This document shows, piece by piece, positions 1 to 21,318 of a DNA stretch of 25,626 nt (positions within the stretch are counted from its first letter, which is position 1; each line of letters starts with the position of its first letter). Under the pieces are notes generated by a model. It did no database searches and was not told the DNA's origin. It saw nothing but the letters and a program-made list of their open reading frames with translations. Position numbers and translations under genes: made by a program. The stretch is from IMG/VR virus record IMGVR_UViG_3300027770_000048, one strand, 5' to 3'. Origin of the DNA: a virus. Taxonomy: Duplodnaviria > Heunggongvirae > Uroviricota > Caudoviricetes.

Positions 1-768
1 AATTATGTTAGATTTTTCTTTTATAGTGATACAAGACAAAATAAAGGATATACATCTTCAATAAGACCAAACATATTAAAACAACATTGGGAAGCTAGAC
101 CTGAAATACATAATAATACTATTTTCTATCATGATTGTGATATTGCTTTCACAAAACCAATTGGTGAATGGATAACCGAAGAAATGATAAATGATGATAA
201 GTGGTATGGTAGTGATACAAGGTGGTATATAGGACATGATTATATTATTTCAAAAGGTGATGATATACTTACTAAAATGTGTGAGATAGTTGATATAGAT
301 AAAGATTTGGTTAAACAAAATGAATTAAACTCTATTGGTGCACAATACTTAATGAAAGGAATTGATTATAATTTTTGGGATAATGTTGAAAACGATTGTG
401 AAAATTTATTTAGAGAAATTAATTTATTAAGTAATTCAAAAAAATTAATTGAACCAACTTATCACGAATTACAAATATGGTGTGCAGATATGTGGTCTGT
501 ATTATGGAATGGTTGGAAATTAGGATATGAAACAATATGTCATCCAAATATGGAATTTAGTTGGGCAACATCTCCTGAAAATTTATGGAATACATGTAAC
601 ATATTTCATAATGCTGGCGCGGTGAATTCAACAAGTGGATTATTTTATAAAGCGGAGTATATGAACAAGTTACCATATAATGAAGTATTAGATATTAAAG
701 AGGGTACAACATCATATGAGTATTGGAAGTTAATACAAAACACAGCAAAAAAATCAGTATTAATATGA
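1..768 (+). CDS. GT-A glycosyltransferase resembling plant HPAT (GT95) / SERGT1 (GT96) protein O-glycosyltransferases; 5'-truncated by the window edge
   Basis: Frame 1 is open from base 1, so the ATG at 184 is internal. The upstream translation is NYVRFFFYSDTRQNKGYTSSIRPNILKQHWEARPEIHNNTIFYHDCDIAFTKP, with a DxD motif (DCD, 133-141) after a hydrophobic strand. WCADMWSVLWNGWKLG (from 478) parallels the WxxEMY motif of GT95/GT96. Confidence 0.72.
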   Translation, partial: NYVRFFFYSDTRQNKGYTSSIRPNILKQHWEARPEIHNNTIFYHDCDIAFTKPIGEWITEEMINDDKWYGSDTRWYIGHDYIISKGDDILTKMCEIVDIDKDLVKQNELNSIGAQYLMKGIDYNFWDNVENDCENLFREINLLSNSKKLIEPTYHELQIWCADMWSVLWNGWKLGYETICHPNMEFSWATSPENLWNTCNIFHNAGAVNSTSGLFYKAEYMNKLPYNEVLDIKEGTTSYEYWKLIQNTAKKSVLI

Positions 769-795
769 TAATAAAAAAACAATTTTAAAAAATAA

Positions 796-803
796 ATACT
801 TAT
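796..803 (+). promoter_or_regulatory. Candidate phage late-promoter octamer ATACTTAT
   Basis: Lies in the 47-nt intergenic gap, 12 nt upstream of the ATG at 816. Related octamers occur in other intergenic gaps (20509-20516 on the minus strand, 21500-21507, 24192-24199). The AT-rich background makes chance hits likely. Confidence 0.3.
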
Positions 804-815
804 TGAAGAAAGATT

Positions 816-1796
816 ATGATAGTTTTTATTACAACAGGTTACGGAAAAAATGTTATAGGAGGTGCCGATATTTGGTGCAACAACTTTATAGAAAATGTTT
901 TACCATTAGTCAAAGAAGATTACAAAATTATAATTGATGGTAGACCTTTGGTTAGAGAAATTGATGCAATCTATACTTTTGGAAACGAAAAAGAAGTTGA
1001 TAAAATATTAGACGAATGTGATAAGATTGTCTTTTTACACCATTCTTATAAACCAAATCCTATTATTCAAAAGTATTTACATAAAACATATCTTACATTT
1101 GTTCATGCGTTTATACCTGATATGGTTGGATTAAATGATGAATATGAAAATTTAATGACAAGATTGGATTGGCATTGGCAAAAAGATATATTAGATAATT
1201 CTGAAAATATTGTTTGGATTGGTTATGAGAAAGATACAATACACACATACTATCCAAAAACAATTACAATTCCAAATTATTATGAATGGAAAAATAAAAA
1301 ACCATTTGTTGGAGTAATTGATAATAAAGTTGGATATGCTGCAAGATGTGAGACAAGAAAGAACGCACATTATTTAGATTCAATACCTGCATTTATATTT
1401 TCAAACAAATATGATTATAAAAGAATGTTAGAAGGTAGTAAAATAAATGCATCCGTACATCAATTTATAGAATTTGATTATCGTTTTCACAATAAGTTTT
1501 TTGAAAAGAATTTCCAAATATTTCATGGAGCATATACCAAAGAACCATTTGGATATGCAATCTTTGACGCAATTGATAATGGTAAACTTCCAATATTAGA
1601 TGGTAGTTGGATGAAAGATATTAAATACAGATATAGAGCAATTAATAAAAAACAATTTCATTATCAATACATAAAAATATTAGAAGATGGATTTGAAAAA
1701 AATAAAAAACAATTTGATAGATTAAAAGCCGGACTAGAAAAATATACTAATAAACAAAAATGGATTAAAGAAATATGGAACCTCTTATTAACTTAG
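816..1796 (+). CDS. GT-B fold glycosyltransferase, GT4-like
   Basis: N-terminal GGADIW loop and C-terminal EPFGYAIFDAIDNGKLP, matching the GT4 E-x-F-G-x4-E/D-A-x3-G-x-P signature. Confidence 0.75.
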   Translation: MIVFITTGYGKNVIGGADIWCNNFIENVLPLVKEDYKIIIDGRPLVREIDAIYTFGNEKEVDKILDECDKIVFLHHSYKPNPIIQKYLHKTYLTFVHAFIPDMVGLNDEYENLMTRLDWHWQKDILDNSENIVWIGYEKDTIHTYYPKTITIPNYYEWKNKKPFVGVIDNKVGYAARCETRKNAHYLDSIPAFIFSNKYDYKRMLEGSKINASVHQFIEFDYRFHNKFFEKNFQIFHGAYTKEPFGYAIFDAIDNGKLPILDGSWMKDIKYRYRAINKKQFHYQYIKILEDGFEKNKKQFDRLKAGLEKYTNKQKWIKEIWNLLLT

Positions 1797-2536
1797 ATAG
1801 AGTAAAAAAGTTTATTACCAATAATACTCACATAGATAAAGAAGGTAATGAAATACATACTCCTGTAAAGTATCGTTGGACACATGGTGCAACCGATTTA
1901 CATATGGGAGATGGTCTTTTGGTATACTCTTTCATTCAATTTATTAGAGCAAAGGTATGTGTCTGTATTGGGTCAGGAGGTGGATTTATACCTCGTCTTA
2001 TGACACAATCAAGATACGATTTATGGGAACAAAAAATATTTGAAGGAAACAAAGCAAATGAATGGGGCGACACCGGAACTACAATCATAGTTGATGCTGC
2101 AAATGGTGTTGGTGGGTTTACCGATTGGACAGAAGAAAATTCTTTTTTAAGATTTAATTTTCAACCTCAAATAATTTTAGAAACATCTGAAAGAGCATTT
2201 TATGATTACTTTGTAAGGCAAGATATTAAAATAGATTACTTACATATTGACGGAGACCATTCATACGAAGGAGTTAAAAAAGATTTTGAATTATATTCTT
2301 CAATTATGTCTGAAAATGGAATTATTACTATTCACGACATAGACCAAAACTATCATGACACATTTGTTGTAACCGAAAATGCAAAAGAAGATTTTGTTCC
2401 GTTTGATGGCCCGGCTAAATATATTAAAGAATTAGAAGAAAATCAGAAATGGAATTTGGTAAACTTAAAAAATTTTCGTATGTTTGATAAAAAAGTTACC
2501 AGTACAGGTTTAACACTGTTAACAAGGAAAGATTAA
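1775..2536 (+). CDS. Class I SAM-dependent methyltransferase (Methyltransf_24-like)
   Basis: CIGSGGGF glycine-rich motif I, and IDYLHIDGDHSYEGVKKDF...NGIITIHD, typical of this family. Confidence 0.85.
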   Translation: MEPLINLDRVKKFITNNTHIDKEGNEIHTPVKYRWTHGATDLHMGDGLLVYSFIQFIRAKVCVCIGSGGGFIPRLMTQSRYDLWEQKIFEGNKANEWGDTGTTIIVDAANGVGGFTDWTEENSFLRFNFQPQIILETSERAFYDYFVRQDIKIDYLHIDGDHSYEGVKKDFELYSSIMSENGIITIHDIDQNYHDTFVVTENAKEDFVPFDGPAKYIKELEENQKWNLVNLKNFRMFDKKVTSTGLTLLTRKD

Positions 2537-2544: not shown

Positions 2545-3390
2545 ATGAATAAAATAAGATTAGTTACAGTAACAGGTTCACGAACGGATACATTGTGGCA
2601 TATGTTGAATCATTATAAAGATTTGGTAGACGAAATGTATGTTGTAGTTTATGAATGGGAAGGTAAAAATATTTATAATGAAGTATCTAAAATTGTAAAA
2701 GAATTTGATAAAACAAAAATTATAAAAAGAGTAACAAAAGAAAAATTTAATTGGGAATATGTTACTGAATTATATAATGAAATAAAAATGTTATTTCCTA
2801 ACGATTGGTGGGTAGTTTCTGATGACGATGAATTTCACATTTATTCCAAACCCCTAAATCAAATTATATCAGCTTGTGCAAGAAATGGATGGGAATTGGT
2901 AAGAGGTGGGTTTATAGATAGAATAGGACAAGTTGGTGATTTTCCAAATATAAATAAAAAGGAAAATATATTTGAACAATTTCCAGTTGCAGGATTTTTT
3001 AGATACCCAATGAGTGGTGCATGTCCTAATAAAGTATGTATAATGAAAGGTTATATAGAAATCACACCTGGACAACACTACGCAAAAATAGATGGACAAA
3101 CTACATGGAGATGGCAAGGTTGGAACCATCCGTTAATTGCACCTGTTGATGAATATAATGTTCAAGTACATCATTTCAAATGGGATTCGACTTGTGTAGA
3201 AAGAATTAAACAAGTTGCAGACATAAAAAAAGATTATTCATTCTCAGCTGAGTATTTGAAAATGTATCAATCTTTAAGAAGTAGTAATTTTGAAATAGAT
3301 GTTACAAATAAAGAATATATGTTTGAATATATTGGAAATGGTGAATATAAACAATGGAATAAACTTTTGAAAAAAATAGTATCAATATAA
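2545..3390 (+). CDS. GT-A glycosyltransferase (GT2_4 / GT92-like)
   Basis: N-terminal beta strand, LNHYKDLVDEMYVVV segment, WWVVSDDDEF acidic metal-binding motif, and NKV...GQH and VHHFKW in the C-terminal half. Confidence 0.65.
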   Translation: MNKIRLVTVTGSRTDTLWHMLNHYKDLVDEMYVVVYEWEGKNIYNEVSKIVKEFDKTKIIKRVTKEKFNWEYVTELYNEIKMLFPNDWWVVSDDDEFHIYSKPLNQIISACARNGWELVRGGFIDRIGQVGDFPNINKKENIFEQFPVAGFFRYPMSGACPNKVCIMKGYIEITPGQHYAKIDGQTTWRWQGWNHPLIAPVDEYNVQVHHFKWDSTCVERIKQVADIKKDYSFSAEYLKMYQSLRSSNFEIDVTNKEYMFEYIGNGEYKQWNKLLKKIVSI

Positions 3391-3438: not shown

Positions 3439-3645
3439 ATGGCAGAAAATAAAAACGAAGAACAATTACTTTTAGAAACAAGAAAAGTAAAAGCATTAGA
3501 AAAAATAGCTAACTCATTAGACGCACTTACCATATGGTTTGAAGATATTGACAAAGATGAATGGAGTAATCGTATTCAATATTATTTATCAGAGTGGCAT
3601 AAAACTATTCCAAAATCTGCATCAGATACCGATGAGTCCGCATAA
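3439..3645 (+). CDS. Small hypothetical protein (68 aa, helical, acidic)
   Basis: Clean ORF in operon orientation with protein-like composition, preceded by a promoter-like element. Its end overlaps the start of the next gene. Confidence 0.75.
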   Translation: MAENKNEEQLLLETRKVKALEKIANSLDALTIWFEDIDKDEWSNRIQYYLSEWHKTIPKSASDTDESA

Positions 3646-5044
3646 ACTTGGAATAATTGTCCCATATAGAGACCGATACGACCAGTTGGTATTATTTAAA
3701 TATTACATGGTCGAATATCTTTCAACAAAAAATATTGATTACGAAATAATTGTCATTCAACAAGATGATGCTAAATTATTTAATAGAGGAATGATATTAA
3801 ATGTAGGTGCAAAATATGCAAAAGGTTTGGGCTGTGATTATATGGTATTTCATGATGTAGATATGTTACCACATGATGTAGATTATTCCTATTCAAACAT
3901 TCCATTACATTTAGCAACAAACTTTATTACAAAACCAGGAGATGCAAAAAGAGAAATGTTTGACCAATATTTTGGTGGAGCTACTATGATTACAATGAAA
4001 GATTTTGAAAAAATAAATGGTTACTCAAATAAATATTGGGGATGGGGTTATGAGGATGATGATTTGTTATTAAGATGTAACCATCATAATATAAAATTGC
4101 AAAATAGTAATATTAAAAATATAGGTAGAAGTGGAGTATCATTGAAATTTAATGGAATCAACTCATTGGTAAAATGTAATAATACAATTAATTGCAATAT
4201 GAGTTCAACTTTTTTCATATCATTTTATCCTGATAAATTGAACTTGAATCACCAAAAGGAATCGGATGAGTTTACGGTATTCAGTATTCCGGGATATGAT
4301 TTTGCAATATGTTATACTTCTTTTGCACGATATAATTTTTGTGCATTTGATGATAAACTAAATGCATTATATGTAAACACTCCTATAAAACCAAATTATA
4401 GAACAAATATCATAGTTACTATTGATACAATTGATAATATTATAAAAGTATACCAAGATGGAATTTACATCGGCCAAACCCAATCTTTTAAAAAATTATA
4501 TAAATATAAAATAGAACCCTATTTTTATTTAGGGGTTGGTAATCCAAAGAGAGATATTATACCAAACTATTTTAAAGGACACATCGACACATTCGCATAT
4601 TATGATAATATATTGACCGATAATCAAATTAAAGAAATATCAACTGATAATACAGACCTAAGAAACTATAATTCAATAAATGATTTAAAAATCTATTATG
4701 ATGCAAATTATATAGAGAATTATAAATTAACAGATTTATCTAATAATAAAAACGATGGTGAAATCGTTGGATGTGAAATAGTAGAATCTGATTTTTTACC
4801 ATATTGTGAAATTCAAATACCAACAAGACGAAATTCTATTTTTAAAACATTACCACATGAAGAAAACGGATTTGAAAATAATAAATGGAAAGATATATCA
4901 ACCAGACACAATCAATTAAGGTTTGTAAATGAAGTTAGCAATCACTCATCATTATTATATAAAGATGGTTTAGATTCTTTACAATTTACAGAATATGGAA
5001 AAACCAATGAAAATAATATAACACATATAAATGTTGGAATATAA
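3632..5044 (+). CDS. GT7 (beta-1,4-galactosyltransferase-like) with an inserted LamG/concanavalin-A-like domain; start revised from 3539 to 3632
   Basis: GT7 motifs IIVPYRDR, FNRG, FHDVD, QYFGG, NGYSNKYWGWGYEDDD. A LamG-like block follows (SLKFNG ... KVYQDG ... FYLG ... FKGHIDTFAYYD), then the GT7 tail (FKTLPH ... DGLDSLQF). The paralog at 5044 starts directly at MKLGVCVPYR. Confidence 0.9.
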   Translation: MSPHKLGIIVPYRDRYDQLVLFKYYMVEYLSTKNIDYEIIVIQQDDAKLFNRGMILNVGAKYAKGLGCDYMVFHDVDMLPHDVDYSYSNIPLHLATNFITKPGDAKREMFDQYFGGATMITMKDFEKINGYSNKYWGWGYEDDDLLLRCNHHNIKLQNSNIKNIGRSGVSLKFNGINSLVKCNNTINCNMSSTFFISFYPDKLNLNHQKESDEFTVFSIPGYDFAICYTSFARYNFCAFDDKLNALYVNTPIKPNYRTNIIVTIDTIDNIIKVYQDGIYIGQTQSFKKLYKYKIEPYFYLGVGNPKRDIIPNYFKGHIDTFAYYDNILTDNQIKEISTDNTDLRNYNSINDLKIYYDANYIENYKLTDLSNNKNDGEIVGCEIVESDFLPYCEIQIPTRRNSIFKTLPHEENGFENNKWKDISTRHNQLRFVNEVSNHSSLLYKDGLDSLQFTEYGKTNENNITHINVGI

Positions 5045-6450
5045 TGAAATTGGGAGTATGCGTACCATATAGAAACAGAGAGGAACATATGAATCAGTTT
5101 GTTCCTCATGTTACAAAATTCTTAGAAGAAAGAGGAATTGAACATACTATATATCTTGCTCACCAATGTGACGATAAACTTTTTAATAGAGGTTTAATGA
5201 AGAACATTGCAGCCAAACATGCATTCGATGATGGATGTGATTACATAGTTTGGCATGATATTGATATGGTGCCTGAAGATGAAAGTTGTGATTATTCGTT
5301 TCCAAAAGACAATCCACAACATATCGCAGTTCGTATTTCACAATCGGATTATCAATTAAAATATGAAGAATACTTTGGTGGTGCTGTTTTATTTTCAAAA
5401 GAACAAGTAGAAAAAACAAACGGATACTCAAATGGATATTGGGATTGGGGAATGGAAGATGATGATTTATTTTGGAGATGTGTGATGGAGGGTTACGCAG
5501 AAAAAACAAATTTAGATTATGATAAAGAAATGTATGTATCATATTTTAATGGTATAGATTCTAAAATTCAATTTAGACCGAGTAGAGAGCAAAGAGATTG
5601 TCTTTCTAATTCACATACGATTTCAGTATTAGTTAAAGCTGACCAACAAATAGAAAAAGTTGCAATTTGGTTAATTGGTGATGAAGAAAGAAAGTTTGTA
5701 GAGTATCCTATATTTAGAAAACCAGGATATGATTGGGGATTATCATTTAACAATAGTAGAGCATATACAATGCAACTTTGGGATAGAACTAAACAACATT
5801 TGTACCAATGGATTAAAAGATATGAAAATCAATGGAGTTGGGTAACAATGGCAGTTGATTCTAAAAATAATAAAATACATTTTTATTTAAATGGTAGAGA
5901 AAGTGATGCAAGATTAGGAACAGGTACACAATCACCATTAAGTTTTTCAGAACCATTAAAGAAATATGGAATGGAACCATTTAATGTTGGTTATTCAAAA
6001 TCACCAATTGAAGAATTTTTTAAAGGTGGCATTGCTAGCATACAAATGTGGGATAGATGTTTAACATCCGATGAGGTAAAAAATCTACATAAAGAAATAC
6101 CTGAAAATAATTTGATATTAGATATATTCACTATGAATTTAGAATTTGGTGAAATGGAAAATATTGAATTAAAAAAAGAAAAAATAGAAATTCCAAATAC
6201 CATTTTACCTTATAGAAGAAATGGTAAATTTTTATGTTTACCACATCAAACGGAAGGATTGATTAATGTTGGTGGTATTGATAAGTGGGCAAAGGGTGAA
6301 ACTACTGCAAGAAATGAAAGAAGATATATTTTAGAAATGCAACAAGGTAAATTAGATTATAAAAACGATGGTATTAATAATATGAATTATAATTATATTA
6401 ATACGGATATAATATTTGATAAACATAAATTAATAAATGTAACATGCTAA
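5044..6450 (+). CDS. Second GT7 with an inserted LamG-like domain (tandem paralog)
   Basis: VCVPYRNR, FNRG, WHDID, EYFGG, NGYSNGYWDWGMEDDD. LamG block (YFNG ... WSWVTM ... HFYLNG ... FKGGIASIQMWDRCLT) and GT7 tail (FLCLPH ... DGINNMNY). TAATG coupling with the upstream gene. Confidence 0.9.
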   Translation: MKLGVCVPYRNREEHMNQFVPHVTKFLEERGIEHTIYLAHQCDDKLFNRGLMKNIAAKHAFDDGCDYIVWHDIDMVPEDESCDYSFPKDNPQHIAVRISQSDYQLKYEEYFGGAVLFSKEQVEKTNGYSNGYWDWGMEDDDLFWRCVMEGYAEKTNLDYDKEMYVSYFNGIDSKIQFRPSREQRDCLSNSHTISVLVKADQQIEKVAIWLIGDEERKFVEYPIFRKPGYDWGLSFNNSRAYTMQLWDRTKQHLYQWIKRYENQWSWVTMAVDSKNNKIHFYLNGRESDARLGTGTQSPLSFSEPLKKYGMEPFNVGYSKSPIEEFFKGGIASIQMWDRCLTSDEVKNLHKEIPENNLILDIFTMNLEFGEMENIELKKEKIEIPNTILPYRRNGKFLCLPHQTEGLINVGGIDKWAKGETTARNERRYILEMQQGKLDYKNDGINNMNYNYINTDIIFDKHKLINVTC

Positions 6451-13609: not shown

Positions 13610-14126
13610 AGATGCACTTACCTCTGCAATGACGGAGTTGGGAAAAATGGATAATACTATCTTTATAGGACAACAATTACTTTGGCATGGAAATCCAATG
13701 AGTACAACCGTTTCAAATGTTCCAAAAGAAAAAATGATTGAAGTTCCTGTTATGGAAGAATCTCAAATGGGAATGAGTTTAGGGATGGCGATGTCCGGAA
13801 AATTTGTAATTACATTTTATCCTCGTTGGGATTTTTTAATTTGTGCAACTAATCAATTGGTAAATCATATAGATAAAATAGTTGGAATGAGTAAAGGTGA
13901 ATGGAATCCAAATATGATTATTAGAATTGGCAAAGGTTCGGATAAACCATTAGACCCAGGGCACCAACACAAAGGAAATTACATTGATGAATTTAAGTCA
14001 ATGTGTAAAAATATTGAATTTCACGATGTAAAATCAGGATATGATGTTGAATTGGCCTATAAATGTGCAATTCAAAATGGTGGAATTAATTGTATAATAG
14101 AATACCCAGAACTATATCATGTCTAA
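13590..14126 (+). CDS. ThDP-dependent enzyme beta subunit (PDH E1-beta / transketolase pyrimidine-binding domain only)
   Basis: IEVPVMEESQMGMSLGMAMSG, FLICATNQLVNH, IIRIG...PGHQH. At 178 aa it has no transketolase C-terminal domain. Confidence 0.85.
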   Translation: MNQSLYKDALTSAMTELGKMDNTIFIGQQLLWHGNPMSTTVSNVPKEKMIEVPVMEESQMGMSLGMAMSGKFVITFYPRWDFLICATNQLVNHIDKIVGMSKGEWNPNMIIRIGKGSDKPLDPGHQHKGNYIDEFKSMCKNIEFHDVKSGYDVELAYKCAIQNGGINCIIEYPELYHV

Positions 14127-14871
14127 TAATAAAAATATCTATTTAGTTATATTTGGTGCAAACGGATTTCCTAATGATTTTTCTTTAAGCCGAATTAGAT
14201 TAGAAAAAGAAGCAAGAGATACCGGTTGGTTTACTGATGTTTTTAATTATTCTGCAGATGATTTAATATCATATAACAAAAAACTAACAGGTGTTGGTGC
14301 TGGTTATTATTGGTGGAAATCGGTTGTTTGTCAAATTTCCTTAAATAAAATTAAAAAAAATGATATAATTTTATATTTAGATGCCGGTTGTAGTATAAAT
14401 ATAAAAGCTGAAAAAAGATTTTGGGAATATATACAATTATGTGATGCCGGCCCAGGGTTTGTTGGTTTTGGCGGTATCGGTGACAATCCCCCTATCGAAA
14501 AAACTTATACAAAACGAGATTTACTTATACATTTAAAGTGTGATTTACCAAAATATACGGAAACAACACAAGCAGTTGCAGGTTTATTTTTTGTTAAAAA
14601 TAATCAATTTGGAAATCATTTAATTAATGAATGGGTAGAATTAAGTATGAATGAACATTTAATAACAGACTCCATATCTATAAATCCAGAATATAGTGAA
14701 TATAAAGGACATAGACATGACCAATCAATTTTAAGTTTATTATTAAAACTTAGACTACCAAAATTAAACAATTACTTATTAGAAAGCTTAGAAGTGGCCG
14801 TAACTTTAATAGAACCATTTTGTTCAGAATGCCCATTAAAAGCCACTAGAATTAATGATTCACATTTTTAA
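14119..14871 (+). CDS. Putative GT-A nucleotide-diphospho-sugar transferase-like protein
   Basis: GYYWWK, ILYLDAGC (DxG after a hydrophobic strand) and HRHDQSILSLL, a motif set I associate with GT-like proteins in phage glycan clusters. Confidence 0.55.
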   Translation: MSNNKNIYLVIFGANGFPNDFSLSRIRLEKEARDTGWFTDVFNYSADDLISYNKKLTGVGAGYYWWKSVVCQISLNKIKKNDIILYLDAGCSINIKAEKRFWEYIQLCDAGPGFVGFGGIGDNPPIEKTYTKRDLLIHLKCDLPKYTETTQAVAGLFFVKNNQFGNHLINEWVELSMNEHLITDSISINPEYSEYKGHRHDQSILSLLLKLRLPKLNNYLLESLEVAVTLIEPFCSECPLKATRINDSHF

Positions 14872-14881: not shown

Positions 14882-17440
14882 TTATATTAATTTTTGTTTA
14901 TTTACTCTCACTCCTGTTTCAAATTCATATTCATATAATCCAGTCAATTTTTTTAAAAAATCTCTATCACTTGTATCATATGTTAAATCTTTTGCTAATT
15001 TATGATTTTTTTGAAATCTTTCTTTATTGTTTTTATAAAAATCAATAAAAAATTCTTTGTTATCATTTATACGTTTAATTTCTTTAACGAATGCATATAA
15101 TCGTTCTTTGTGGTCTAATATAGTATCGTAACTATGGTCTATAACATCATCAAACCAATCAAAATTATAACGTTTTTTTATTTCATAAATGTGGTTTGGA
15201 GATGCCAGTATTAGTGGAAATTGAAATGTAACAAATGGTTTAAATGATTTTTCAGTAACGTGTATTTCATTAGTATCAAATTCCGTTTCAGTTGTAATAT
15301 TTACATAGGAATTTTTATAACTTAAATACTCATACGTTCTTCCCCAATCTACATAATCTATATTATCCTCTCTAAACCAATTTTTATCTTCTTCATAGAA
15401 ACTTTTCTTTTGGTCTATATTGATAAAATACACCATATCATCTATCATTTTTTCCATATCCTCATCGGATAAACACGATTGATACAATCCTATTGGATGA
15501 TTTGCATATTTTTGTTTAGCATCCCATCCATTTGCTAATGACCAATCTACATTATCCAAAAGACCATATTGTTTTAACAAAACTAATAAAGAATATCTAT
15601 GTGGTCTAATACGTCTATTATGGCATAAGAAGAATTTACCTTCTTTTTCTGTGGTATATTTTAAGTCTGGCATTGCTTCCATCATAGCTAATCCGATATG
15701 GGTTCTAACTTTTGATGTAGAATATACATTCATTTGACTATTTAATTCTGCTTTATAATCTTCTAATTTAATATTATTATTTACTATCCAAATTTGACTT
15801 TGATTTAAATTATTAAATTTAGTCCAAAAATGAACAAACTTAAAAGTATTAAAACTTTCAAATTCTTGTTCATTTGCCAAAACAACATTAAAGTTTGGAT
15901 TTTCTCGCCAACAATCTATAATCTCTTGTGGAAATGGTAAGATTCTATCTCTAATTTTATTACCTATTTGATTTGGCGTAAGTGTTACGAAATAATAAAA
16001 TTTTCTATTTGGATATTTTGCAACGGTATTAATTGGATATCGTTTAATTCTTTCTTCGGGAAATCCTAAAGACCTAACAAATGATTCTAAATTCATAAGA
16101 AATGAATCTGTGTAAATTTCTTTACAATTCATATCATATGGCTCTTGTAATGTTTCGTTCCAATTATCATAAACTAAGTGTAAATCTACATCATCAATCT
16201 CTGGCTTTACTTCACTTAATTTTTTAAAAAATTTATAATCATAATCGTTACCCCATGCCTTTAATATATTGTGATTTTTTTGAAATCTTTCTTTATTGTT
16301 TTTATAAAAATTAATAAAAAATTCTTTGTTATCATTTATACGTTTAACTTCTTCAACAAATGCGATTAATCTATCCCTATTATTTTCTATATTATCATAA
16401 CTATGATTTATAATATCATCAAAGAAATCCAATTCAGGATATGCTTTTCTAAAATATTCTAAATGATGATATGAAGCTAAAATCATTGGATATTGAAAAT
16501 AGAAAAATGGTTTAAACGATTTTTCAGTAATATGAATATCTTCTCCTACAAAATTAGTTTCGGTTGTAATATTCAAATATGAATTTTCAAAACTATTGGG
16601 TTCGTTTGGCAATCTTTGAATTTCTCTATCATCCAATCCTTCGTATTGAGTTTCATAATTACTTTTTTTAATATCAATTGAAGTAAAATATTCAATTTCA
16701 TCTGATAAATTTAATATATCTTCGGAGTTCAAAATAGAAGTAAATTGTGATTTAGCTTCTTTATCAAAAGACCATCCGTTTATCAACGACCAATTTGTAT
16801 TGTCTAAAATATTATATTTTTTTAATAAACATAATAATCCATACCGATGAATTCTTGGACTTCTATTATGACACAAAAAAAACTGATTTGGAGTTTTTAA
16901 TATTCTATATTTTACTGCAGGATATGTTCCAGAAACTGATGTAGACATTGAACGACTTGCATGCACATTTATACTTGCATTTAATTCTTGTTTATGTTCT
17001 GGTAATTTTTCACCATTATGAATAAACCAAACCTTTTTAGGATTTATTTTATGTAATTTTACTATCTTATCAAGTCTTTCTAAAGATTGTTTTGTTTCAA
17101 ACTCACACTCATTCATTATAATTAAATGTAAATTATTATTAGTTTTAATCATCCGAATTACCTCTTTATTCACAGGTAACATATTATTGGCAAAAAAACG
17201 ATTATTCCAACCATTTCTATTCCATATATGATAATAAAACATTACATCCGGATTATTTGGAACATCTGATAGTTTCCAATTTTTTATAACGGTTCTATGA
17301 TATACCGCCATTGGTTGTGTAGATAACACCCACGTATTCTCATTATCATCTTGATGAATATAATCACTTAATCTATTAGGAAGGGGTAAATCATTTACTT
17401 CATCCCAATCATCATAAACAAAATTTAAAACGTTATCCAT
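14882..17440 (-). CDS. Protein of two tandem homologous ~415-435 aa units, each with a GT10-like TEK motif (putative double glycosyltransferase)
   Basis: Unit 1: VYDDW ... FLCHNRSPRIHR ... ITTET ... HITEKSFKPF. Unit 2 (from about aa 416): VYDNW ... FLCHNRRIRPHR ... ITTET ... HVTEKSFKPF. The TEK motif recalls the GT10 donor-binding motif; the functional call is tentative. Confidence 0.55.
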   Translation of the reverse strand: MDNVLNFVYDDWDEVNDLPLPNRLSDYIHQDDNENTWVLSTQPMAVYHRTVIKNWKLSDVPNNPDVMFYYHIWNRNGWNNRFFANNMLPVNKEVIRMIKTNNNLHLIIMNECEFETKQSLERLDKIVKLHKINPKKVWFIHNGEKLPEHKQELNASINVHASRSMSTSVSGTYPAVKYRILKTPNQFFLCHNRSPRIHRYGLLCLLKKYNILDNTNWSLINGWSFDKEAKSQFTSILNSEDILNLSDEIEYFTSIDIKKSNYETQYEGLDDREIQRLPNEPNSFENSYLNITTETNFVGEDIHITEKSFKPFFYFQYPMILASYHHLEYFRKAYPELDFFDDIINHSYDNIENNRDRLIAFVEEVKRINDNKEFFINFYKNNKERFQKNHNILKAWGNDYDYKFFKKLSEVKPEIDDVDLHLVYDNWNETLQEPYDMNCKEIYTDSFLMNLESFVRSLGFPEERIKRYPINTVAKYPNRKFYYFVTLTPNQIGNKIRDRILPFPQEIIDCWRENPNFNVVLANEQEFESFNTFKFVHFWTKFNNLNQSQIWIVNNNIKLEDYKAELNSQMNVYSTSKVRTHIGLAMMEAMPDLKYTTEKEGKFFLCHNRRIRPHRYSLLVLLKQYGLLDNVDWSLANGWDAKQKYANHPIGLYQSCLSDEDMEKMIDDMVYFINIDQKKSFYEEDKNWFREDNIDYVDWGRTYEYLSYKNSYVNITTETEFDTNEIHVTEKSFKPFVTFQFPLILASPNHIYEIKKRYNFDWFDDVIDHSYDTILDHKERLYAFVKEIKRINDNKEFFIDFYKNNKERFQKNHKLAKDLTYDTSDRDFLKKLTGLYEYEFETGVRVNKQKLI
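15003..15094. repeat. 92-bp direct repeat, copy 1 (in unit 2 of the 852-aa gene)
   Basis: Matches 16272-16363 at 88/92 nt by manual comparison; offset 1269 nt (423 codons). Confidence 0.9.
16272..16363. repeat. 92-bp direct repeat, copy 2 (in unit 1 of the 852-aa gene)
   Basis: Matches 15003-15094 with 4 substitutions. Encodes AFVEEVKRINDNKEFFINFYKNNKERFQKNH versus AFVKEIKRINDNKEFFIDFYKNNKERFQKNH. Confidence 0.9.
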
Positions 17441-18057
17441 TTACCTGTTCCGTAATGCGGCCATTTATTTTTATAATTATACCAAATCACATTAGAAGGT
17501 ATTTCTCTTTTAATTCCACCCCAAGTTTCAATTGTTGGTGTATTAGTTGAAACTCCATTATCTTCGACAACAAATATTATAGGCAAATCCAAATTAGTTG
17601 CGTATTTATGCATTTCATAAAACTGACCTGTTTCAAATGCCATATCACCAATAAAACACCAAACTTTTTCATCACCACCACTTTGTTTAATTCCCATAGC
17701 TGCACCAACCGCAATTGGAATAATTGATGATACAATTGCAGATGCATAAAATTTATCTTTTTCACTAACAATTGTAATACTTCTACCTGCTAATATTTCT
17801 TCTTCTAACCATACCGGACTAATTCCTTTAATTAATGCATGATAATGAGAACGCCAAGTTGAAAATACCCAATCGGTGGATTTCATTCGTTTACCAATTT
17901 CTATTAATTGTTCCTCATTTCCTCCACTCAAATGAACTGGTCCTTTGATTTTTCCTTCTTCCCAATGTTTTACTATAAAATCTTCAAACTTAATTAAAGA
18001 TGTTATGGTTTGTTCAATATCTTTTATAATTGGATATTGTTCTAAATTTTTTATCAT
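17425..18057 (-). CDS. ThDP-dependent enzyme alpha subunit (PDH E1-alpha-like, truncated)
   Basis: GPVHLSGGNE, STWRSH, and the ThDP/Mg motif CFIGDMAFETG...FVVEDNG. It is 210 aa long and ends at WPHYGTG. Confidence 0.87.
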   Translation of the reverse strand: MIKNLEQYPIIKDIEQTITSLIKFEDFIVKHWEEGKIKGPVHLSGGNEEQLIEIGKRMKSTDWVFSTWRSHYHALIKGISPVWLEEEILAGRSITIVSEKDKFYASAIVSSIIPIAVGAAMGIKQSGGDEKVWCFIGDMAFETGQFYEMHKYATNLDLPIIFVVEDNGVSTNTPTIETWGGIKREIPSNVIWYNYKNKWPHYGTGKWITF

Positions 18058-18590
18058 CTATCTCTTTTTTGTAGTGTTGGATTATTAGAAGGCCATTCCA
18101 TTTGATATTCTGGGTCATTCCATTTAACTACACCTTGCTCATTTGCATCTACATAACCATTTTTATAAAATAAATTATAATGAAATATACAATCAGTTAA
18201 TGCGTAGTGGCCGTTTGCAAATCCAGGTGGAACTAATATTTGATTTCTATCTTTATCAGTTATCATAAAAGATTCCCACTCTCCAAAGGTAGTACTATTT
18301 TTTCTCATATCTAATACAATTAGGTAAATATCTCCAACTACGGCTTGAACTAACTTCCAAGTCTTATTATCGTAATGCAATCCTCTTAATACACCTTTAT
18401 ATGATTTTGAGAATCTACCATGTACTTCATTTCCTTCACCTATTTTTGTAATTACAGGGTGTTCACCTGAATGAAAGGTTGTAAATATTTCACCTCTATA
18501 TTCTCTATAAATTGATGGAGTATATGTTGGTACTTCTAATCCAAATTTTTTCGAAGGAGTAATTTGAAACTCATCCCATTTATTACTCAT
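18054..18590 (-). CDS. rmlC: dTDP-4-dehydrorhamnose 3,5-epimerase family (cupin)
   Basis: YRGEIF, SYKGVLRGLHY, KLVQAVVGDIY..VLDMRKNSTTFGEW, LVPPGFANG, WNDP. The nucleotide specificity is not certain. Confidence 0.9.
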   Translation of the reverse strand: MSNKWDEFQITPSKKFGLEVPTYTPSIYREYRGEIFTTFHSGEHPVITKIGEGNEVHGRFSKSYKGVLRGLHYDNKTWKLVQAVVGDIYLIVLDMRKNSTTFGEWESFMITDKDRNQILVPPGFANGHYALTDCIFHYNLFYKNGYVDANEQGVVKWNDPEYQMEWPSNNPTLQKRDR

Positions 18591-18591: not shown

Positions 18592-19575
18592 CTATGTTTG
18601 ATTTGCGTATCCTAAAGGAAAACCATTTCTAAATTCAAAACCCATTTTTGGTACTATCATTTGATATGCCATTATAAGTTCTTTAATACCTCTATCTAAA
18701 TCCCATTGTGGCCCCCATCCTGTTGCTTCTAACTTATCGTTTGATACAATATAGTTCCTCTTATCTGGGTCCTCATAATAGTCATCGTAGACCACTGCAA
18801 AGTCCTTTACATGAGATTGTATTTTTTCTAATAATTCTTGTTTTGAAAGATTTGCATTACTCAATCCTACATTGAAAACTTCACCTTTATATTTGTCATA
18901 ATGTTGAATCATAAAACAAAAAGTAAATGCTACATCCTGTATATGAATGAAATTTCTTTTGAACGTTTTTTCAAATACAACAACATATTTGTCAGTAATT
19001 GATTTATAAACAAAATCGTTTACTAATAAGTCAGTTCTCATTCTTGACGAAACTCCAAAAACAGTTGCCAATCTAAATATGATTGCATCCGTTGAAGTTC
19101 TTAAAAAGTTTTCAGCATCACATTTAGTTTGTCCGTAAACTGATATTGGAGTAAGTGGAGATTCTTCTGTACATTCCATTTGACCGGTACTTAAACCATA
19201 TCCACTATTTGTATTTGGATATAAAATCTTTTTACCTTTTCCGTTTGTAAATTTAACAATATTAACTATTTGTTGAAAGTTAATTTCTTTTGCTAATTTT
19301 GGGTCTTGTGCACATGCAGGAAATCCTACAATTGCAGCCAATGGAATAATCACATCCGCTTCATCACAAAGTTTTTGTAATAATGATTCGTTACGAACAT
19401 CTCCATGTATAAATTTGAATTTTGACTTTGATATGTATTGTAATAACGAAGTTTGATTGAATAATAATTTATCCAAAACAACTACTTCATAACTTTGTTC
19501 TAATAGTTTTCCAACTAATACCGAACCCAAATAACCTGCACCACCTGTGATTAAAACTTTTTTATTTATATTCAT
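18592..19575 (-). CDS. NAD-dependent NDP-sugar epimerase/dehydratase (extended SDR, canonical YxxxK)
   Basis: VLITGGAGYLGS, GDVR, LAAIVG, YGQTK, FRLATVFG...MRTDLLVN, RNFIHIQDVA. Confidence 0.92.
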   Translation of the reverse strand: MNINKKVLITGGAGYLGSVLVGKLLEQSYEVVVLDKLLFNQTSLLQYISKSKFKFIHGDVRNESLLQKLCDEADVIIPLAAIVGFPACAQDPKLAKEINFQQIVNIVKFTNGKGKKILYPNTNSGYGLSTGQMECTEESPLTPISVYGQTKCDAENFLRTSTDAIIFRLATVFGVSSRMRTDLLVNDFVYKSITDKYVVVFEKTFKRNFIHIQDVAFTFCFMIQHYDKYKGEVFNVGLSNANLSKQELLEKIQSHVKDFAVVYDDYYEDPDKRNYIVSNDKLEATGWGPQWDLDRGIKELIMAYQMIVPKMGFEFRNGFPLGYANQT

Positions 19576-19595: not shown

Positions 19596-20411
19596 TTAAG
19601 GCCCAACAAATGATTGAATTGCAAACCTTTTGAATTTATTTTTAACAAGTTCAATTGAATGACCCACATTAAATTTGGTGAAATCCATTATGACGTAATT
19701 CCCATAAACTGGAATACATTTTACAGCTGACTGATTAAATTCCAAAATTTGTTGGTTATTTGTTTTAATATCTTGTCCTATTAATAATTCACCACCATCA
19801 TCATTATGATATGTAAGTGGGTCTGCCAAATAGAATACTATTACACAAGCTCTTCCTGGATTTATACCATCAAAATGCATTTCGGAAAAATCCCCAGCTT
19901 CATATAAACTATAACCAGTAGCTACTCTAAAGGTATCCTTTTTATCAAATAGTTCGGGATAAATAAGTGAAGTATGTTTTCTAATAACATCTTCAAAATA
20001 AGTATCCATATCCCGTATTTTTTGTGCTTCTGCACCTTCAAAATTTTCTAATTGTAATCTTGACCATTGTTGTGTAGTTCTAATATCTCCACCACCAGCA
20101 ATTACTTGATTAACAAAGTCTTTTCTATTATCCACACGTACATATGGTATTTCCTGTAAAAATTCCTCATCAGTTGGTACTGGTCCAGAATATTCGTTAG
20201 AATTTAAATAATTGTGAGGAGAATTCTGAGCTATAAAATTGTGTCGATAACAATACCATTTTTCTTTTTCATCTGCAGTTTGTCTAAAGTGATTAGTCCA
20301 ATATAAAAACATATCTTCTTTTATACCCGTTAAATCATTAAAAAATTCCTCGAATTTACCAATGTGGTATCCATTGTTTATCAAATTTTTATAGATTTGA
20401 TTATACATCAT
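19596..20411 (-). CDS. 2OG-Fe(II) oxygenase (prolyl 4-hydroxylase-like superfamily)
   Basis: YSLYEAGDFSEMHFDG (HxD), FYLAD...DGGEL, GHSIELV (distal His) and KRFAI (2OG-binding Arg). Confidence 0.85.
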   Translation of the reverse strand: MMYNQIYKNLINNGYHIGKFEEFFNDLTGIKEDMFLYWTNHFRQTADEKEKWYCYRHNFIAQNSPHNYLNSNEYSGPVPTDEEFLQEIPYVRVDNRKDFVNQVIAGGGDIRTTQQWSRLQLENFEGAEAQKIRDMDTYFEDVIRKHTSLIYPELFDKKDTFRVATGYSLYEAGDFSEMHFDGINPGRACVIVFYLADPLTYHNDDGGELLIGQDIKTNNQQILEFNQSAVKCIPVYGNYVIMDFTKFNVGHSIELVKNKFKRFAIQSFVGP

Positions 20412-20479
20412 ATATTTTGTATTTTTTCAACTATAACAGAAATTAAATAACTATTTTCATCCGTAACCAATATTTTCAT
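20408..20479 (-). pseudogene. 23-codon remnant of an SDR epimerase N-terminus, not in the ORF track
   Basis: Translates as MKILVTDENSYLISVIVEKIQNI*, which aligns without gaps to VLITGGAGYLGSVLVGKL of the gene at 18592-19575. Its TGA overlaps the ATG of the oxygenase (ATGA). Confidence 0.6.
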
Positions 20480-20508
20480 TTCAAAAAATGTGTTTATTTT
20501 TTATATAT

Positions 20509-20516
20509 ATAAATAT
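20509..20516 (-). promoter_or_regulatory. Candidate late-promoter octamer ATATTTAT heading the leftward operon
   Basis: Lies in the divergent intergenic region, about 30 nt upstream of the ATG at 20479. The same octamer precedes the 891-aa gene. Confidence 0.35.
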
Positions 20517-20541
20517 AACATAACAAAAATTTTTATAAACA

Positions 20542-21318
20542 ATGAACACAAAAAAGCGATTTTTTGCATTTGGTTGTAGTTACACCCGATGGAACCCAAA
20601 TCCAACTTGGGCAGATTTTATTGGTATAAATTTTGAAGAATATTATAATTTAGGTAAACCTGGAGCATGTAATACCTATATTATGAATCAAGTTATAGAA
20701 GTAAGTGAAAAAATGCAATTTAACCAAGAAACCGATGTGGTAATAGTTGCATTAACCGGATTTGGTAGATTCTCATATTTACAAGCACCACCAAAAAACG
20801 CACCATATGGATATAATTGGATTACAAGTGGTGATATATTATTCAAAAACCCAGGACATAACCAAACAGCTAAATTATTAGCTAATGAAATTTATAATTA
20901 TACATGGGCAGCATATAACTCTTGGATTGCAATAAAAGTAATCAAATCAATTTTGACTTCAAAAAATATAGAACACAAAATTATAATGGTTATTAATAAT
21001 TCTCACTATTTAACAGATTCGGATGCATTGGATTTAAATAGAGGAATTAACACATCTGATGATATAATATCTAAAATTAAAAATATATACGATACATTAG
21101 ATATAACGGAAACGATTGATGAATTCAAATTGGATTATATAACTATGAATGGCGGTAATACCAACGAACATCCTAATAAAGAAATTCATTTTCAATATAT
21201 ATCTAAATATTTTCCAGAATTTGTTACCGAAAAAAGTAAAAATTTATTAAATATCGATATATCTACTCATAACTGGTATTTAGAACTTACAAATCGAATC
21301 ACAAATTTGATAAATTAA
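20542..21318 (+). CDS. Second SGNH/GDSL-like protein (GCS variant)
   Basis: FFAFGCSYT (block I), NLGKPGACN (block II-like) and NEHP (block V His, without the canonical Asp). Confidence 0.62.
   Translation: MNTKKRFFAFGCSYTRWNPNPTWADFIGINFEEYYNLGKPGACNTYIMNQVIEVSEKMQFNQETDVVIVALTGFGRFSYLQAPPKNAPYGYNWITSGDILFKNPGHNQTAKLLANEIYNYTWAAYNSWIAIKVIKSILTSKNIEHKIIMVINNSHYLTDSDALDLNRGINTSDDIISKIKNIYDTLDITETIDEFKLDYITMNGGNTNEHPNKEIHFQYISKYFPEFVTEKSKNLLNIDISTHNWYLELTNRITNLIN

Follow-up and report, generated by a model that had tools for sequence, protein, structure and literature searches.

To our knowledge, glycosylation of phage-particle proteins is established for only a few mycobacteriophages. Among other viruses, chloroviruses and mimiviruses use their own nucleoside diphosphate (NDP)-sugar tailoring enzymes and soluble glycosyltransferases (GTs) to glycosylate structural proteins without a host membrane pathway. 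Here, we analyzed a 25,626-nucleotide stretch of DNA from an uncultured phage (IMG/VR virus record IMGVR_UViG_3300027770_000048; hereafter, the window), in which positions 1 to 21318 hold an island of glycan genes. The island consists of 21 open reading frames (ORFs) of 178 to 852 amino acids (aa) and a conserved 68-aa ORF. The intergenic gaps range from −26 to +48 nt, except for gaps of 130 and 193 nt around orf21, and the coding fraction is approximately 0.99. Nearly all of the genes are assigned to sugar-nucleotide tailoring, glycosyl transfer, or decoration (Table 1). Because most of these assignments were confirmed by Pfam, NCBIfam, or fold comparison, an earlier sequence-only reading of the window, which listed more than 20 consecutive genes of this kind in about 21 kb, is well supported. 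That reading also placed the glycan most likely on virion proteins. We regard O-glycosylation of virion proteins in the cytoplasm as the best reading of the island and hold it with moderate confidence, because the island is linked to a tail fiber gene, because its first gene, orf1, is coupled to proteins with poly-Thr tracts, and because no membrane machinery accompanies it.

The proposed system shares its overall scheme with that of the giant viruses, as both combine self-encoded tailoring enzymes with multiple soluble GTs, and a chlorovirus GT (3oy2) lies near an orf16 module in fold comparison. The giant viruses differ in having eukaryotic hosts and in belonging to the Nucleocytoviricota, and the likeness is limited to GT folds. 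In mycobacteriophages, glycans are found on the C-termini of capsid and tail-tube subunits (Freeman 2023, via PMC12619734), and PMC12619734 and PMC12582341 describe a proposed action of soluble, phage-encoded GTs in the cytoplasm on Ser/Thr-rich tracts of virion proteins. Action of soluble GTs on such tracts is also what we propose here, and, in cultured phages with an orf1 homolog, the tract is mostly a C-terminal extension of the tail-tube protein. In contrast to the mycobacteriophage system, the island uses other protein families (PHROG 4417, GT7 fused to LamG, N-terminal-twitch radical S-adenosylmethionine [SAM] enzymes, and thiamine diphosphate [ThDP] E1-like proteins), involves about 21 genes rather than a few, belongs to a phage of a non-actinobacterial host, has as its candidate acceptor a separate mucin-like protein beside the fiber instead of the capsid, and is predicted from gene content.

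Large sugar clusters have also been described in T4-like cyanophages, including a 15-gene major sugar cluster in P-SSM2 (PMC7824862). The exceptional size that the sequence-only reading attributed to the pathway was, therefore, overstated. Like the island, the cyanophage clusters are large and polymorphic, with epimerase/dehydratase paralogs, cupin isomerases, many GTs, methyltransferases, and 2-oxoglutarate (2OG) oxygenases. Unlike the island, they hold sugar kinases and nucleotidyltransferases and are read as modifying outer polysaccharides of the host, and the passages of PMC7824862 consulted describe no fixed link to a tail fiber or a mucin-like protein. Loci of the Wzx/Wzy, ABC, and Gtr types share with the island deoxy-sugar tailoring by RmlC-like enzymes and short-chain dehydrogenases/reductases (SDRs), several GTs, and methyl and acyl decoration. 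However, neither the island nor its 80 relatives nor the complete relative genomes yielded an initiating phosphoglycosyl transferase, a flippase, a polymerase, a regulator of chain length, an ABC-2 permease, or a membrane protein of the GtrA/B/C kind.

The absence of membrane components extends from the island to its relatives. A Kyte-Doolittle hydropathy scan revealed no convincing membrane segment in orf1 through orf21, and the few 19-residue windows with a score of at least 1.6 all fall inside cofactor-binding folds, in agreement with the earlier claim that positions 1 to 21318 encode neither a transmembrane protein nor an exporter. In 80 related loci, none of the 1,486 ORFs encodes a multi-pass membrane protein by the same scan. 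A strongly hydrophobic window is present in 12 of these ORFs, which encode ThDP and SDR enzymes, one 86-aa protein, and short unlabeled proteins; the latter ORFs, mostly on the opposite strand, are probably spurious. Across the whole genomes of two relatives, G001 (198.5 kb) and G003 (238 kb), the maximum is three to four weak hydrophobic segments, found in one coiled-coil protein that is unrelated to polysaccharide export. No flippase, polymerase, or ABC-2 permease (6 to 14 transmembrane segments) was detected by hydropathy in the window, the 80 loci, G001, or G003, and no WecA-type multi-pass candidate was found in the latter two genomes. The phosphoglycosyl transferase domain Bac_transf (PF02397) is absent from four complete relatives, in a search whose control was positive in 9 of 14 genomes. 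Genes of the wzx, wzy, or gtr type, whose presence just upstream of base 1 would have refuted the sequence-only reading by its own criteria, are not found there; that position is taken by a tail fiber gene and a gene for a mucin-like protein.

To extend the gene map, the flanks beyond the window were read from JGI metagenome contigs that share exact proteins with it (samples 3300009161, 3300010160, 3300028394, and others). Upstream of base 1 lie genes for a 1556-aa Ser/Thr-rich tail fiber, for a 401-aa mucin-like protein, and for full-length orf1, which encodes 314 aa (L001 5948-6892). The 1556-aa protein matches Peptidase_S74 and the PHROG families for tail fibers and long-tail-fiber distal subunits. 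The genes for the fiber, the mucin-like protein, orf1, and orf2 are spaced by only 1 to 48 nt. The island thus occupies a slot between a long tail-fiber gene and a block formed by a gene for an NMNAT-like protein, terL, and a portal gene. We conclude that it is an accessory insertion within a structural-gene neighborhood, because the fiber gene lies upstream, the NMNAT-like gene of the phage backbone marks the right boundary, and glycan genes are missing from the 20 kb that precede terL (from the tail-spike gene on) in Flavobacterium phage immuto, the phage with the best cultured terL match.

The linkage to the fiber gene recurs in related phages, for which the sequence-only reading had called for a synteny survey. 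With one GT7-LamG protein as the query, 276 loci were retrieved from IMG/VR, of which the best 80 (59 to 94% identity) were examined with 10 kb on either side. In these loci, a fiber gene and zero to five variable genes are followed by orf2, orf3, orf4, the small protein gene, two to three GT7-LamG genes, and then genes for a radical SAM enzyme, a LamG-like protein, an SDR, an RmlC-like protein, a ThDP-alpha protein, one to two orf16-type GT-B proteins, and an SDR. A fiber homolog is located upstream of the core in 53 of the 80 loci and directly adjoins it in 25. Most of the other 26 loci break off no more than about 3.7 kb ahead of the core or start with a long unlabeled ORF; where the available upstream sequence is long enough, the island follows a tail fiber gene. 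Within the core, orf2 is present in 70 loci, orf3 in 76, and orf4 in 79, and the SDR at 18592-19575 has a median identity of 81% across 60 loci. A similar pairing exists elsewhere in the two relatives: in G001 (94305-97178) and G003 (210929-215867), a second fiber gene is followed within 5 nt by a paralog of orf2 (30 to 34% identity to orf2), so that fiber and GT genes are paired twice per genome.

The 401-aa mucin-like protein has about 10 runs of 6 to 13 Thr, most of them followed by A/E-A-P (TTTTTTT-A/E-A-P), and a Cys-rich C-terminus. Its neighbor orf1 belongs to PHROG 4417, a family with no annotated function, and none of its 2,370 close and 976 cluster-level relatives has a Pfam domain. 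The family has an invariant D104-x-D106 after a hydrophobic strand and an invariant H262-N-A-G. In longer relatives, the domain is N-terminal and fused to GT2, GT6, Gly_transf_sug, or radical SAM-SPASM domains, and in one relative, it is C-terminal to Methyltransf_24. These features make orf1 a probable DxD glycosyltransferase, which we treat as a lead. In the GT7-anchored survey, all five loci with orf1 encode a Thr-rich protein directly upstream of it (Ser+Thr fraction of 0.32 to 0.38); in one of them, L027, the upstream piece is cut to 117 aa and has no Thr runs. No poly-Thr protein without orf1 was found in the 80 loci. The possibility that the poly-Thr protein accompanies the whole core island was considered and rejected, as it accompanies only orf1.

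A second scan of IMG/VR, anchored on orf1, yielded 550 relatives, of which 80 loci were examined. In 77 loci anchored on orf1, the gene directly upstream of it encodes a poly-Thr protein in 40 of 75 cases, compared to 20 of 943 other ORFs (Fisher P = 5e-36), and 57 of the 60 poly-Thr ORFs are situated one or two genes upstream of orf1. The pairing is found in 23 of 34 orf1 clusters at 80% identity; relatedness inflates these counts, though the pairing spans divergent backbones. An orf1 homolog (28 to 38% identity) is also carried in 77 records of cultured phages. In all six of the cultured phages inspected, a poly-Thr tract is located beside or near the homolog in the virion module. The major tail protein gp50 of Enterococcus phage phiFL1A closes with a stretch of about 25 Ser/Thr residues, and the homolog, gp51, is the next gene, ahead of the tape-measure region. 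A poly-Thr tract also terminates the major tail protein of Staphylococcus phage SA2, where the homolog follows a short overlapping poly-Thr ORF. The tail protein there (L184 3117-3930) ends in T8, and the overlapping ORF, in another frame, encodes 88 aa that are 56% Ser/Thr and may extend the tail-tube protein through frameshifting. The unannotated gp18 of Clostridium phage phiCTP1, in the position of a tail protein, ends in poly-Thr and is followed by the homolog as the next gene. The major tail protein of Enterococcus phage VPE25 has T10 at its end, and the homolog is found in the head-tail module at a distance of about 1.8 kb. Lactobacillus phage 521B has an Ig-like protein that ends in TTVxP repeats directly before the homolog. 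In Chryseobacterium phage MA9V-3, the gene before the homolog encodes a protein that has three Thr runs, and an unannotated 786-aa ORF, which we tentatively take to encode a fiber-like protein, follows the homolog. The gene arrangement expected for virion glycosylation of the mycobacteriophage type, a candidate GT gene beside a virion gene with a Ser/Thr-rich tract, is present in the sequence of fiber, poly-Thr protein, and orf1. In a literature search of incomplete coverage, no paper was found in which phage glycosylation is connected with poly-Thr tracts, with PHROG 4417, or with GT7-LamG genes.

Several observations weigh against virion glycosylation. The case rests on gene neighborhood and fold throughout, and the membrane scan is crude, being based on Kyte-Doolittle hydropathy and not on TMHMM. 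The Ser+Thr content of the fiber (22 to 25%) is common for fibers. GT7 enzymes normally extend a sugar and not a peptide. An hhalign comparison of the orf1 family with the GT7 and orf4 families gave no significant match (the alignments have low diversity, with Neff of about 2). The T4 late-promoter motif TATAAATA shows no enrichment, with 9 copies versus 10.3 expected. Finally, because the cassette of orf1 and the poly-Thr gene is present in only 5 of the 80 GT7-anchored loci examined, the conserved core must have another acceptor. Thus, the earlier placement of the glycan on virion proteins holds up as far as the fiber linkage and the orf1/poly-Thr coupling carry it, but not for the acceptor of the conserved core.

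Two further points of this kind belong to the alternative that survives best, remodeling of the host surface, which we consider unlikely. Under such remodeling, NDP-sugars made by the phage would be added to undecaprenyl-linked or lipopolysaccharide-core intermediates of the host at the inner membrane face. The host's initiating transferase, flippase, and ligase would then finish the product, and the surface of the infected cell would be altered, for example, to block superinfection or the re-adsorption of progeny to lysed cells. A membrane-free island is compatible with this scheme, because soluble GTs can act on the undecaprenyl-linked intermediates of the host. Many GTs of O-antigen and capsule synthesis, including those at the cytoplasmic face, are soluble or peripheral, and the phosphoglycosyl transferase, flippase, and ligase could be borrowed from the host. 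Moreover, the set of SDR, RmlC-like, and ThDP proteins resembles O-antigen deoxy-sugar pathways, and the island is as hypervariable as host-interaction islands. The large, polymorphic sugar clusters of T4-like cyanophages are also read in this way (PMC7824862). However, neither the four complete relatives nor the 80 loci contain a phosphoglycosyl transferase, flippase, polymerase, ABC exporter, or Gtr-type gene, and the time in which a lytic T4-like phage could display a new polysaccharide is short. Surface remodeling also explains neither the fixed position after the fiber gene nor the pairing of orf1 with poly-Thr proteins in the structural modules of unrelated phages.

A less probable alternative, for which we see a small chance, is that the island is a mosaic with several targets. 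In that case, the cassette of orf1 and the mucin-like protein would modify a virion protein, while the product of the GT7/radical SAM/ThDP core would be a different one, which might be a soluble glycoconjugate, a small molecule that carries sugar, or an altered pool of sugar nucleotides. The rarity of the cassette among the loci with the core shows that the two are separable. At its periphery, the island is indeed mosaic, because it contains an inverted block and rare genes and because a different gene set is found in the same slot of the 77.7-kb contig L005. Six genes (orf8, orf9, orf13, orf15, orf20, and orf21) are rare in relatives, with orf9 absent from all 80 loci, so the island may not encode a single pathway. 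Both the rare genes and the L005 set count against a single virion-glycosylation pathway as well. In addition, a second cyanophage cluster of sugar- and amino acid-modifying enzymes has been proposed to make a secondary metabolite (PMC7824862). On the other side, the order of the core genes is strongly conserved and follows the fiber gene, the Pfam results for the window include no carrier protein, nonribosomal peptide synthetase, polyketide synthase, kinase, or transporter, and about seven GTs fit an oligosaccharide bound to a macromolecule better than a small molecule.

Two features of this periphery can be described more closely. The block from orf16 to orf20 (14882-20411) is inverted relative to the co-directional order of nearly all related loci, which leaves a convergent junction at 14871/14882 and a divergent junction at 20411/20542. 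In L005, positions 1 to 9300 encode an SDR, a Transket_pyr protein, and five unannotated proteins ahead of the NMNAT-like gene and terL, which marks the slot as a swap site.

The sequence-only reading had counted about seven GT-like genes. The count is fair, because four genes (five domains) are solid and three (orf1, orf4, and orf15) are probable. The two GT7+LamG proteins, orf5 and orf6, score 70.7 and 67.5 bits and 64.5 and 69.6 bits, respectively, for the N- and C-terminal GT7 domains, compared to gathering cut-offs of 27 and 23. Their H71-D72-I-D74 and W135-G-M-E-D-D-D141 motifs are invariant or nearly so in 18 sequences and align to the DxD and WGxEDDD motifs of beta4GalT7, as expected for the CAZy family GT7. 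The N-terminal 150 to 180 residues match the animal GT7 enzymes beta4GalT7 and beta4GalT1 with E values of 3e-30 to 1e-28, the match of orf6 to human beta4GalT7 being at 3e-30 (phmmer). The alignments to PDB sequences span only query residues 2 to 181, and LamG_3 follows at 186 to 346, with about 120 residues after it. The addition of a carbohydrate-binding-type domain to a GT-A catalytic domain follows the same logic as in polypeptide GalNAc-transferases, except that the lectin-like domain is LamG instead of ricin-type and that, by Pfam coordinates, it follows the GT7C segment, with the stretch of about 120 residues behind it. No tblastn match to the GT7+LamG enzymes was found in 50,697 phage GenBank records.

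The GT-B proteins were identified by fold. The AF2 model of orf2, built from an alignment of metagenomic relatives, has a pLDDT of 90.3 and a pTM of 0.87. Foldseek returned 242 PDB matches at E ≤ 0.001, the top ones being GT4 enzymes (E = 2e-9, TM of 0.60 to 0.66). On these models, orf2 is confirmed at the fold level as a GT4-type GT-B protein with two Rossmann folds. It has an EPFG..A..GK.P motif in which the first Glu is invariant, while the second position of EX7E is D, N, or Q in all 19 sequences. The two halves of orf16 are 42% identical and represent a tandem duplication of a GT-B module. The AF2 model of the N-terminal module has a pLDDT of 80, and VIA-align gives Z scores of 10 to 12 over 256 to 304 residues. 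Every VIA-align row named as a glycosyltransferase or synthase is of GT-B type, including FUT9 (Z of 11.0, rmsd of 4.1). Alpha-1,3-fucosyltransferases are among the matches, and the chlorovirus GT 3oy2 scores Z of 11.2. Foldseek matches are weak (E of 2e-3), and none of the 28 members of the orf16 family has a Pfam family. The modeled fold of the orf16 modules is thus confirmed as GT-B at the fold level. In some relatives, such as L080 and L084, the two modules are separate adjacent genes.

For orf4, an invariant D93-D94-D95 after a hydrophobic strand, Atlas neighbors in GT2 and GT92 (0.96 to 0.97), and a match to Pfam Glyco_tranf_2_4 below the cut-off (E = 0.018) point to a probable GT-A enzyme, which is a lead. 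The weaker lead for orf15 is a GT-A-like match to GT34/DUF273 at E of about 0.1; none of its 79 homologs has a Pfam domain. Homolog searches with orf4 and orf15 returned unannotated proteins only. With relaxed E values, a Pfam search of the unassigned ORFs gave only the sub-threshold matches to GT2_4 (orf4) and GT34/DUF273 (orf15), and profile searches of the orf1, orf2, orf4, and SGNH-like families against PDB sequences gave nothing significant.

The folds of orf2 and orf16 also bring up hypermodification of DNA, in which a complex glycan on hydroxymethylated bases would allow escape from restriction, as in T-even phages and with the recently reported DNA glycans of several sugars. This is highly improbable. 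In its favor, the phage belongs to the T4-like group, glycosylation of DNA takes place in the cytoplasm without membrane components, and phage GTs are documented to make diverse DNA glycans (Pyle 2024, via PMC12619734). In addition, orf2 and an orf16 module align structurally with T4 AGT/BGT among many GT-B proteins, and an AGT-family cluster is listed in the Atlas at 0.97 for orf2. Against it, AGT and BGT take only ranks 25 to 34 among the structural matches of orf2, behind generic GT4 enzymes. G001 and G003, both with the island, have no gene of the thymidylate synthase family (PF00303) needed for hydroxymethylcytosine or hydroxymethyluracil, and no Tet/JBP match (PF12851) was found in the four relatives by a search without a positive control. 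The island is located among structural and not replication genes, with a poly-Thr coupling for which DNA modification offers no explanation.

Among the tailoring and decorating enzymes, the RmlC-like protein, three SDRs, ThDP alpha and beta proteins, two radical SAM enzymes, two methyltransferases, and 2OG oxygenase that had been recognized from the sequence were all confirmed by Pfam or NCBIfam. Both twitch radical SAM enzymes exceed the curated NF033640 cut-off of 170 bits and have CxxxCxxC at residue 136 (CNFKCSYC and CNFACSYC), as is characteristic of the family. In NCBIfam, the SDRs, the cupin, and the ThDP proteins all score far below the equivalog cut-offs, so that no specific sugar can be named. 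The best NCBIfam match of the SDR at 10784-11776 is Fcl, with 132 bits versus a cut-off of 500. Where the catalytic YxxxK is expected, this SDR has PAWSK, and the one at 11751-12740 has VGWMK. The RmlC-like cupin scores 106 bits for TIGR01221, versus a cut-off of 155.75, and 111 bits for the Pfam family dTDP_sugar_isom, versus 27; by these scores, it is a member of that family but not demonstrably RmlC itself. The ThDP beta-like protein matches pyruvate dehydrogenase E1-beta at 3e-9, far below the cut-off, and the alpha-like and beta-like proteins are short and encoded on opposite strands. Neither a sugar kinase nor an NDP-sugar nucleotidyltransferase has a Pfam or NCBIfam hit in positions 1 to 21318, the only nucleotidyltransferase-like domain being in the backbone gene at 21512-24187.

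Two SGNH enzymes had also been named; orf13 and orf21 have no Pfam hit of their own, but their families share GCS...G...DxHP..H blocks, with invariant G-C-S and His and a nearly invariant block II Gly, and 2 of 13 family members match Lipase_GDSL (PF00657) at E of 3e-4. The block III Asn is not invariant. We consider orf13 and orf21 to be putative SGNH-like proteins on the basis of the conserved blocks and the matches of the two homologs. Similarly lacking a Pfam hit, orf8 is a LamG-like partner and probably not an enzyme; in relatives, a protein of about 245 aa takes its place after the radical SAM gene. The small protein at 3439-3645 has no Pfam or PHROG hit. Its relatives have 62 to 88 aa, and an unlabeled ORF is located between orf4 and the GT7 genes in 43 loci. 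A near-invariant core is seen in the 40 listed sequences, where one 97-aa minus-strand entry is a spurious ORF. By eye, the protein looks helical.

Together, these enzymes would support the following pathway of virion glycosylation, if all 21 genes contribute to one product. As the island has no nucleotidyltransferase, NDP-hexoses would be drawn from the host during infection and then remodeled in the cytoplasm by the RmlC-like epimerase, the three SDRs, the ThDP alpha/beta pair, and the two twitch radical SAM enzymes, with the ThDP pair possibly adding a two-carbon branch. Late in infection, soluble GTs, namely, the two GT7 enzymes with lectin-like LamG domains, the GT4-like GT-B protein, the double GT-B protein, and up to three GT-A-like proteins, would build an oligosaccharide directly on Ser/Thr-rich virion proteins. 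The GT7 enzymes may elongate the chain, because their closest solved relatives (beta4GalT7) extend a sugar that is already on a protein, and the LamG domains may help to hold the acceptor. The product could then be decorated by the two methyltransferases, the two SGNH-type enzymes (through acylation or de-acylation), and the 2OG oxygenase. The likeliest first acceptor would be the 401-aa mucin-like protein, with orf1 as the initiating transferase. No lipid carrier, flippase, or exporter would be needed, because virions would assemble in the cytoplasm and leave by lysis.

More tentatively, we propose a wider scheme that is possible but has less than even support in our judgment. PHROG 4417 proteins may initiate a widespread "mucin-type" O-glycosylation on poly-Thr tracts of phage virions, which in an abundant lineage of large freshwater phages would be joined to a cytoplasmic pathway of about 20 genes, with eukaryote-like GT7 enzymes that have lectin domains, twitch radical SAM enzymes, and a ThDP enzyme, that builds a chemically unusual, possibly branched and methylated glycan coat on the tail fibers. 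Within the same tentative scheme, the targets would be the C-termini of tail-tube proteins in Enterococcus, Staphylococcus, and probably Clostridium phages, the Ig-like protein of the Lactobacillus phage, and fiber-associated mucin-like proteins in phages of Bacteroidota and in aquatic T4-like phages.

The source of the window is an uncultured, low-GC freshwater T4-like myophage. It is a large phage and not a cell, because a T4-type terL, a portal gene, and a prohead protease gene lie downstream and because its complete relatives have genomes of 198 to 276 kb; with the tail fiber, these genes settle the concern that the contig might be cellular. The terL gene predicted from the sequence about 4 kb downstream of the island starts at 25550. 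Contigs with an identical copy of the preceding gene (24909-25550) encode the whole 535-aa Terminase_6N protein, followed by Portal_T4 and Peptidase_S77, so that the large terminase, gp20-type portal, and gp21-type prohead protease of a T4-type head module occur together. The terL protein matches 2,987 records, mostly of T4-like phages. Its best cultured match is that of Flavobacterium phage immuto (Immutovirus; 52.6% identity), and Microcystis phage Mel-JY01 ranks next. The length range of 198 to 276 kb is that of the relatives in IMG/VR that were judged complete, one of which has terminal repeats. A megablast search of the window against 50,697 phage records gave no match, and the window has no near-identical cultured relative. 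The G+C content of the window is 25 to 34% in 1-kb windows, mostly 26 to 31%, and no tRNA genes were found in it.

The 891-aa NMNAT-like protein at the right boundary has homologs in G001 and G003 at 74 to 75% identity, and its gene is a conserved backbone gene outside the glycan island. Beyond its N-terminus, the protein has a HExxH stretch and a K-x-D-G ligase-like motif. In immuto, a 907-aa protein annotated as an NMN adenylyltransferase is encoded about 9 kb upstream of terL and is likely the counterpart, as judged by annotation and position and not by alignment. The 213-aa protein encoded just before terL (24909-25550, plus strand) has a strongly hydrophobic N-terminus followed by Cys-Gly-Gly, resembling a lipoprotein signal, and is the sole membrane-targeted product that the window encodes. 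A gene for ribosomal protein S21 (PF01165; L004 11219-11395) is part of the head module in this phage lineage. With respect to transcription signals, one copy of TATAAATA is located 27 nt before orf21, and scans for sigma-70 promoters and terminators were uninformative.

Table 1. Genes of the glycan island and its right flank, with window coordinates and the evidence for each assignment
Feature	Coordinates	Strand	Evidence
orf1, PHROG 4417 family, probable DxD glycosyltransferase, 5′-truncated	1..768	+	phrog_4417, E 2e-50
orf2, GT-B (GT4-like) glycosyltransferase, first conserved-core gene	816..1796	+	Predicted structure, Foldseek
orf3, class I methyltransferase (Methyltransf_24)	1775..2536	+	PF13578, E 4e-10
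orf4, probable GT-A glycosyltransferase	2545..3390	+	DDD motif, Atlas neighbors, sub-cut-off Pfam
Small conserved protein, 68 aa	3439..3645	+	Conserved position and core in relatives
orf5, GT7+LamG copy A	3632..5044	+	PF13733 1e-19, PF02709 8e-19, PF13385 2e-5
orf6, GT7+LamG copy B	5044..6450	+	PF02709 2e-19, PF13733 1e-17, PF13385 5e-10
N-terminal-twitch radical SAM 1	6444..7832	+	NF033640, 334 bits
orf8, stand-alone LamG-like protein	7829..8728	+	C-terminal "DKSGNGNHG" motif; follows radical SAM gene
orf9, FkbM methyltransferase, variable gene	8730..9389	+	PF05050 8e-15, TIGR01444 2e-19
N-terminal-twitch radical SAM 2	9394..10839	+	NF033640, 298 bits
Extended SDR, GDP-fucose-synthase-like, without catalytic Tyr	10784..11776	+	PF01370 2e-39
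Extended SDR, GDP-fucose-synthase-like, without catalytic Tyr	11751..12740	+	PF01370 5e-44
orf13, SGNH-hydrolase-like (esterase or acyltransferase)	12743..13609	+	Conserved blocks, Lipase_GDSL matches of homologs
ThDP E1-beta-like, pyrimidine-binding domain only	13590..14126	+	PF02779 3e-8
orf15, weak GT-A (GT34/DUF273) lead	14119..14871	+	Pfam E 0.09 and 0.15
orf16, two fused GT-B modules, ~420 aa each	14882..17440	-	Fold comparison
ThDP E1-alpha-like, diphosphate-binding part	17425..18057	-	PF00676 2e-18, phrog_34187 6e-49
RmlC-like NDP-sugar 3,5-epimerase cupin	18054..18590	-	PF00908 5e-32, 111 bits
Extended SDR with intact YGQTK (residue 147)	18592..19575	-	PF01370 5e-34
orf20, 2OG-Fe(II) oxygenase (prolyl-hydroxylase-type Pfam families), variable	19596..20411	-	PF13661 1e-6, PF13640 4e-6
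orf21, SGNH-hydrolase-like 2, last island gene	20542..21318	+	Alignment with orf13 family, Lipase_GDSL matches of homologs
Backbone gene, 891 aa, right island boundary	21512..24187	+	NMNAT/cytidylyltransferase-like N-terminus, PF01467 6e-7
terL, first 25 codons	25550..25626	+	Continues on contigs with identical preceding gene

Virion glycosylation by phages and large phage sugar clusters are already known. New here are the fixed linkage of such a cluster to a fiber gene in a large uncultured lineage, the enzyme set of GT7+LamG proteins, paired twitch radical SAM enzymes, a split minimal ThDP enzyme, and a double GT-B protein, and the pairing of PHROG 4417 with poly-Thr proteins across lineages. 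Several of these enzymes are of biochemical interest, particularly the GT7+LamG proteins, the minimal split ThDP enzyme, and the pair of twitch radical SAM enzymes, both of which have a LamG partner. As cultured phages of Enterococcus, Staphylococcus, Lactobacillus, Clostridium, and Chryseobacterium also show the orf1/poly-Thr pairing, bench tests of the idea need not await a culture of the lake phage.

The genes involved are abundant: there are 276 core loci in IMG/VR, one core gene has more than 3,000 relatives in metagenomes, and the orf1 family comprises 976 sequence clusters. If virion glycosylation is the correct reading, it would be both common and elaborate in abundant environmental phages, and the large unannotated family PHROG 4417 would gain a function. 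The tail fibers that decide host range would then carry a variable glycan layer, which would affect adsorption, resistance to host proteases and defenses, and the stickiness of phage particles in water.

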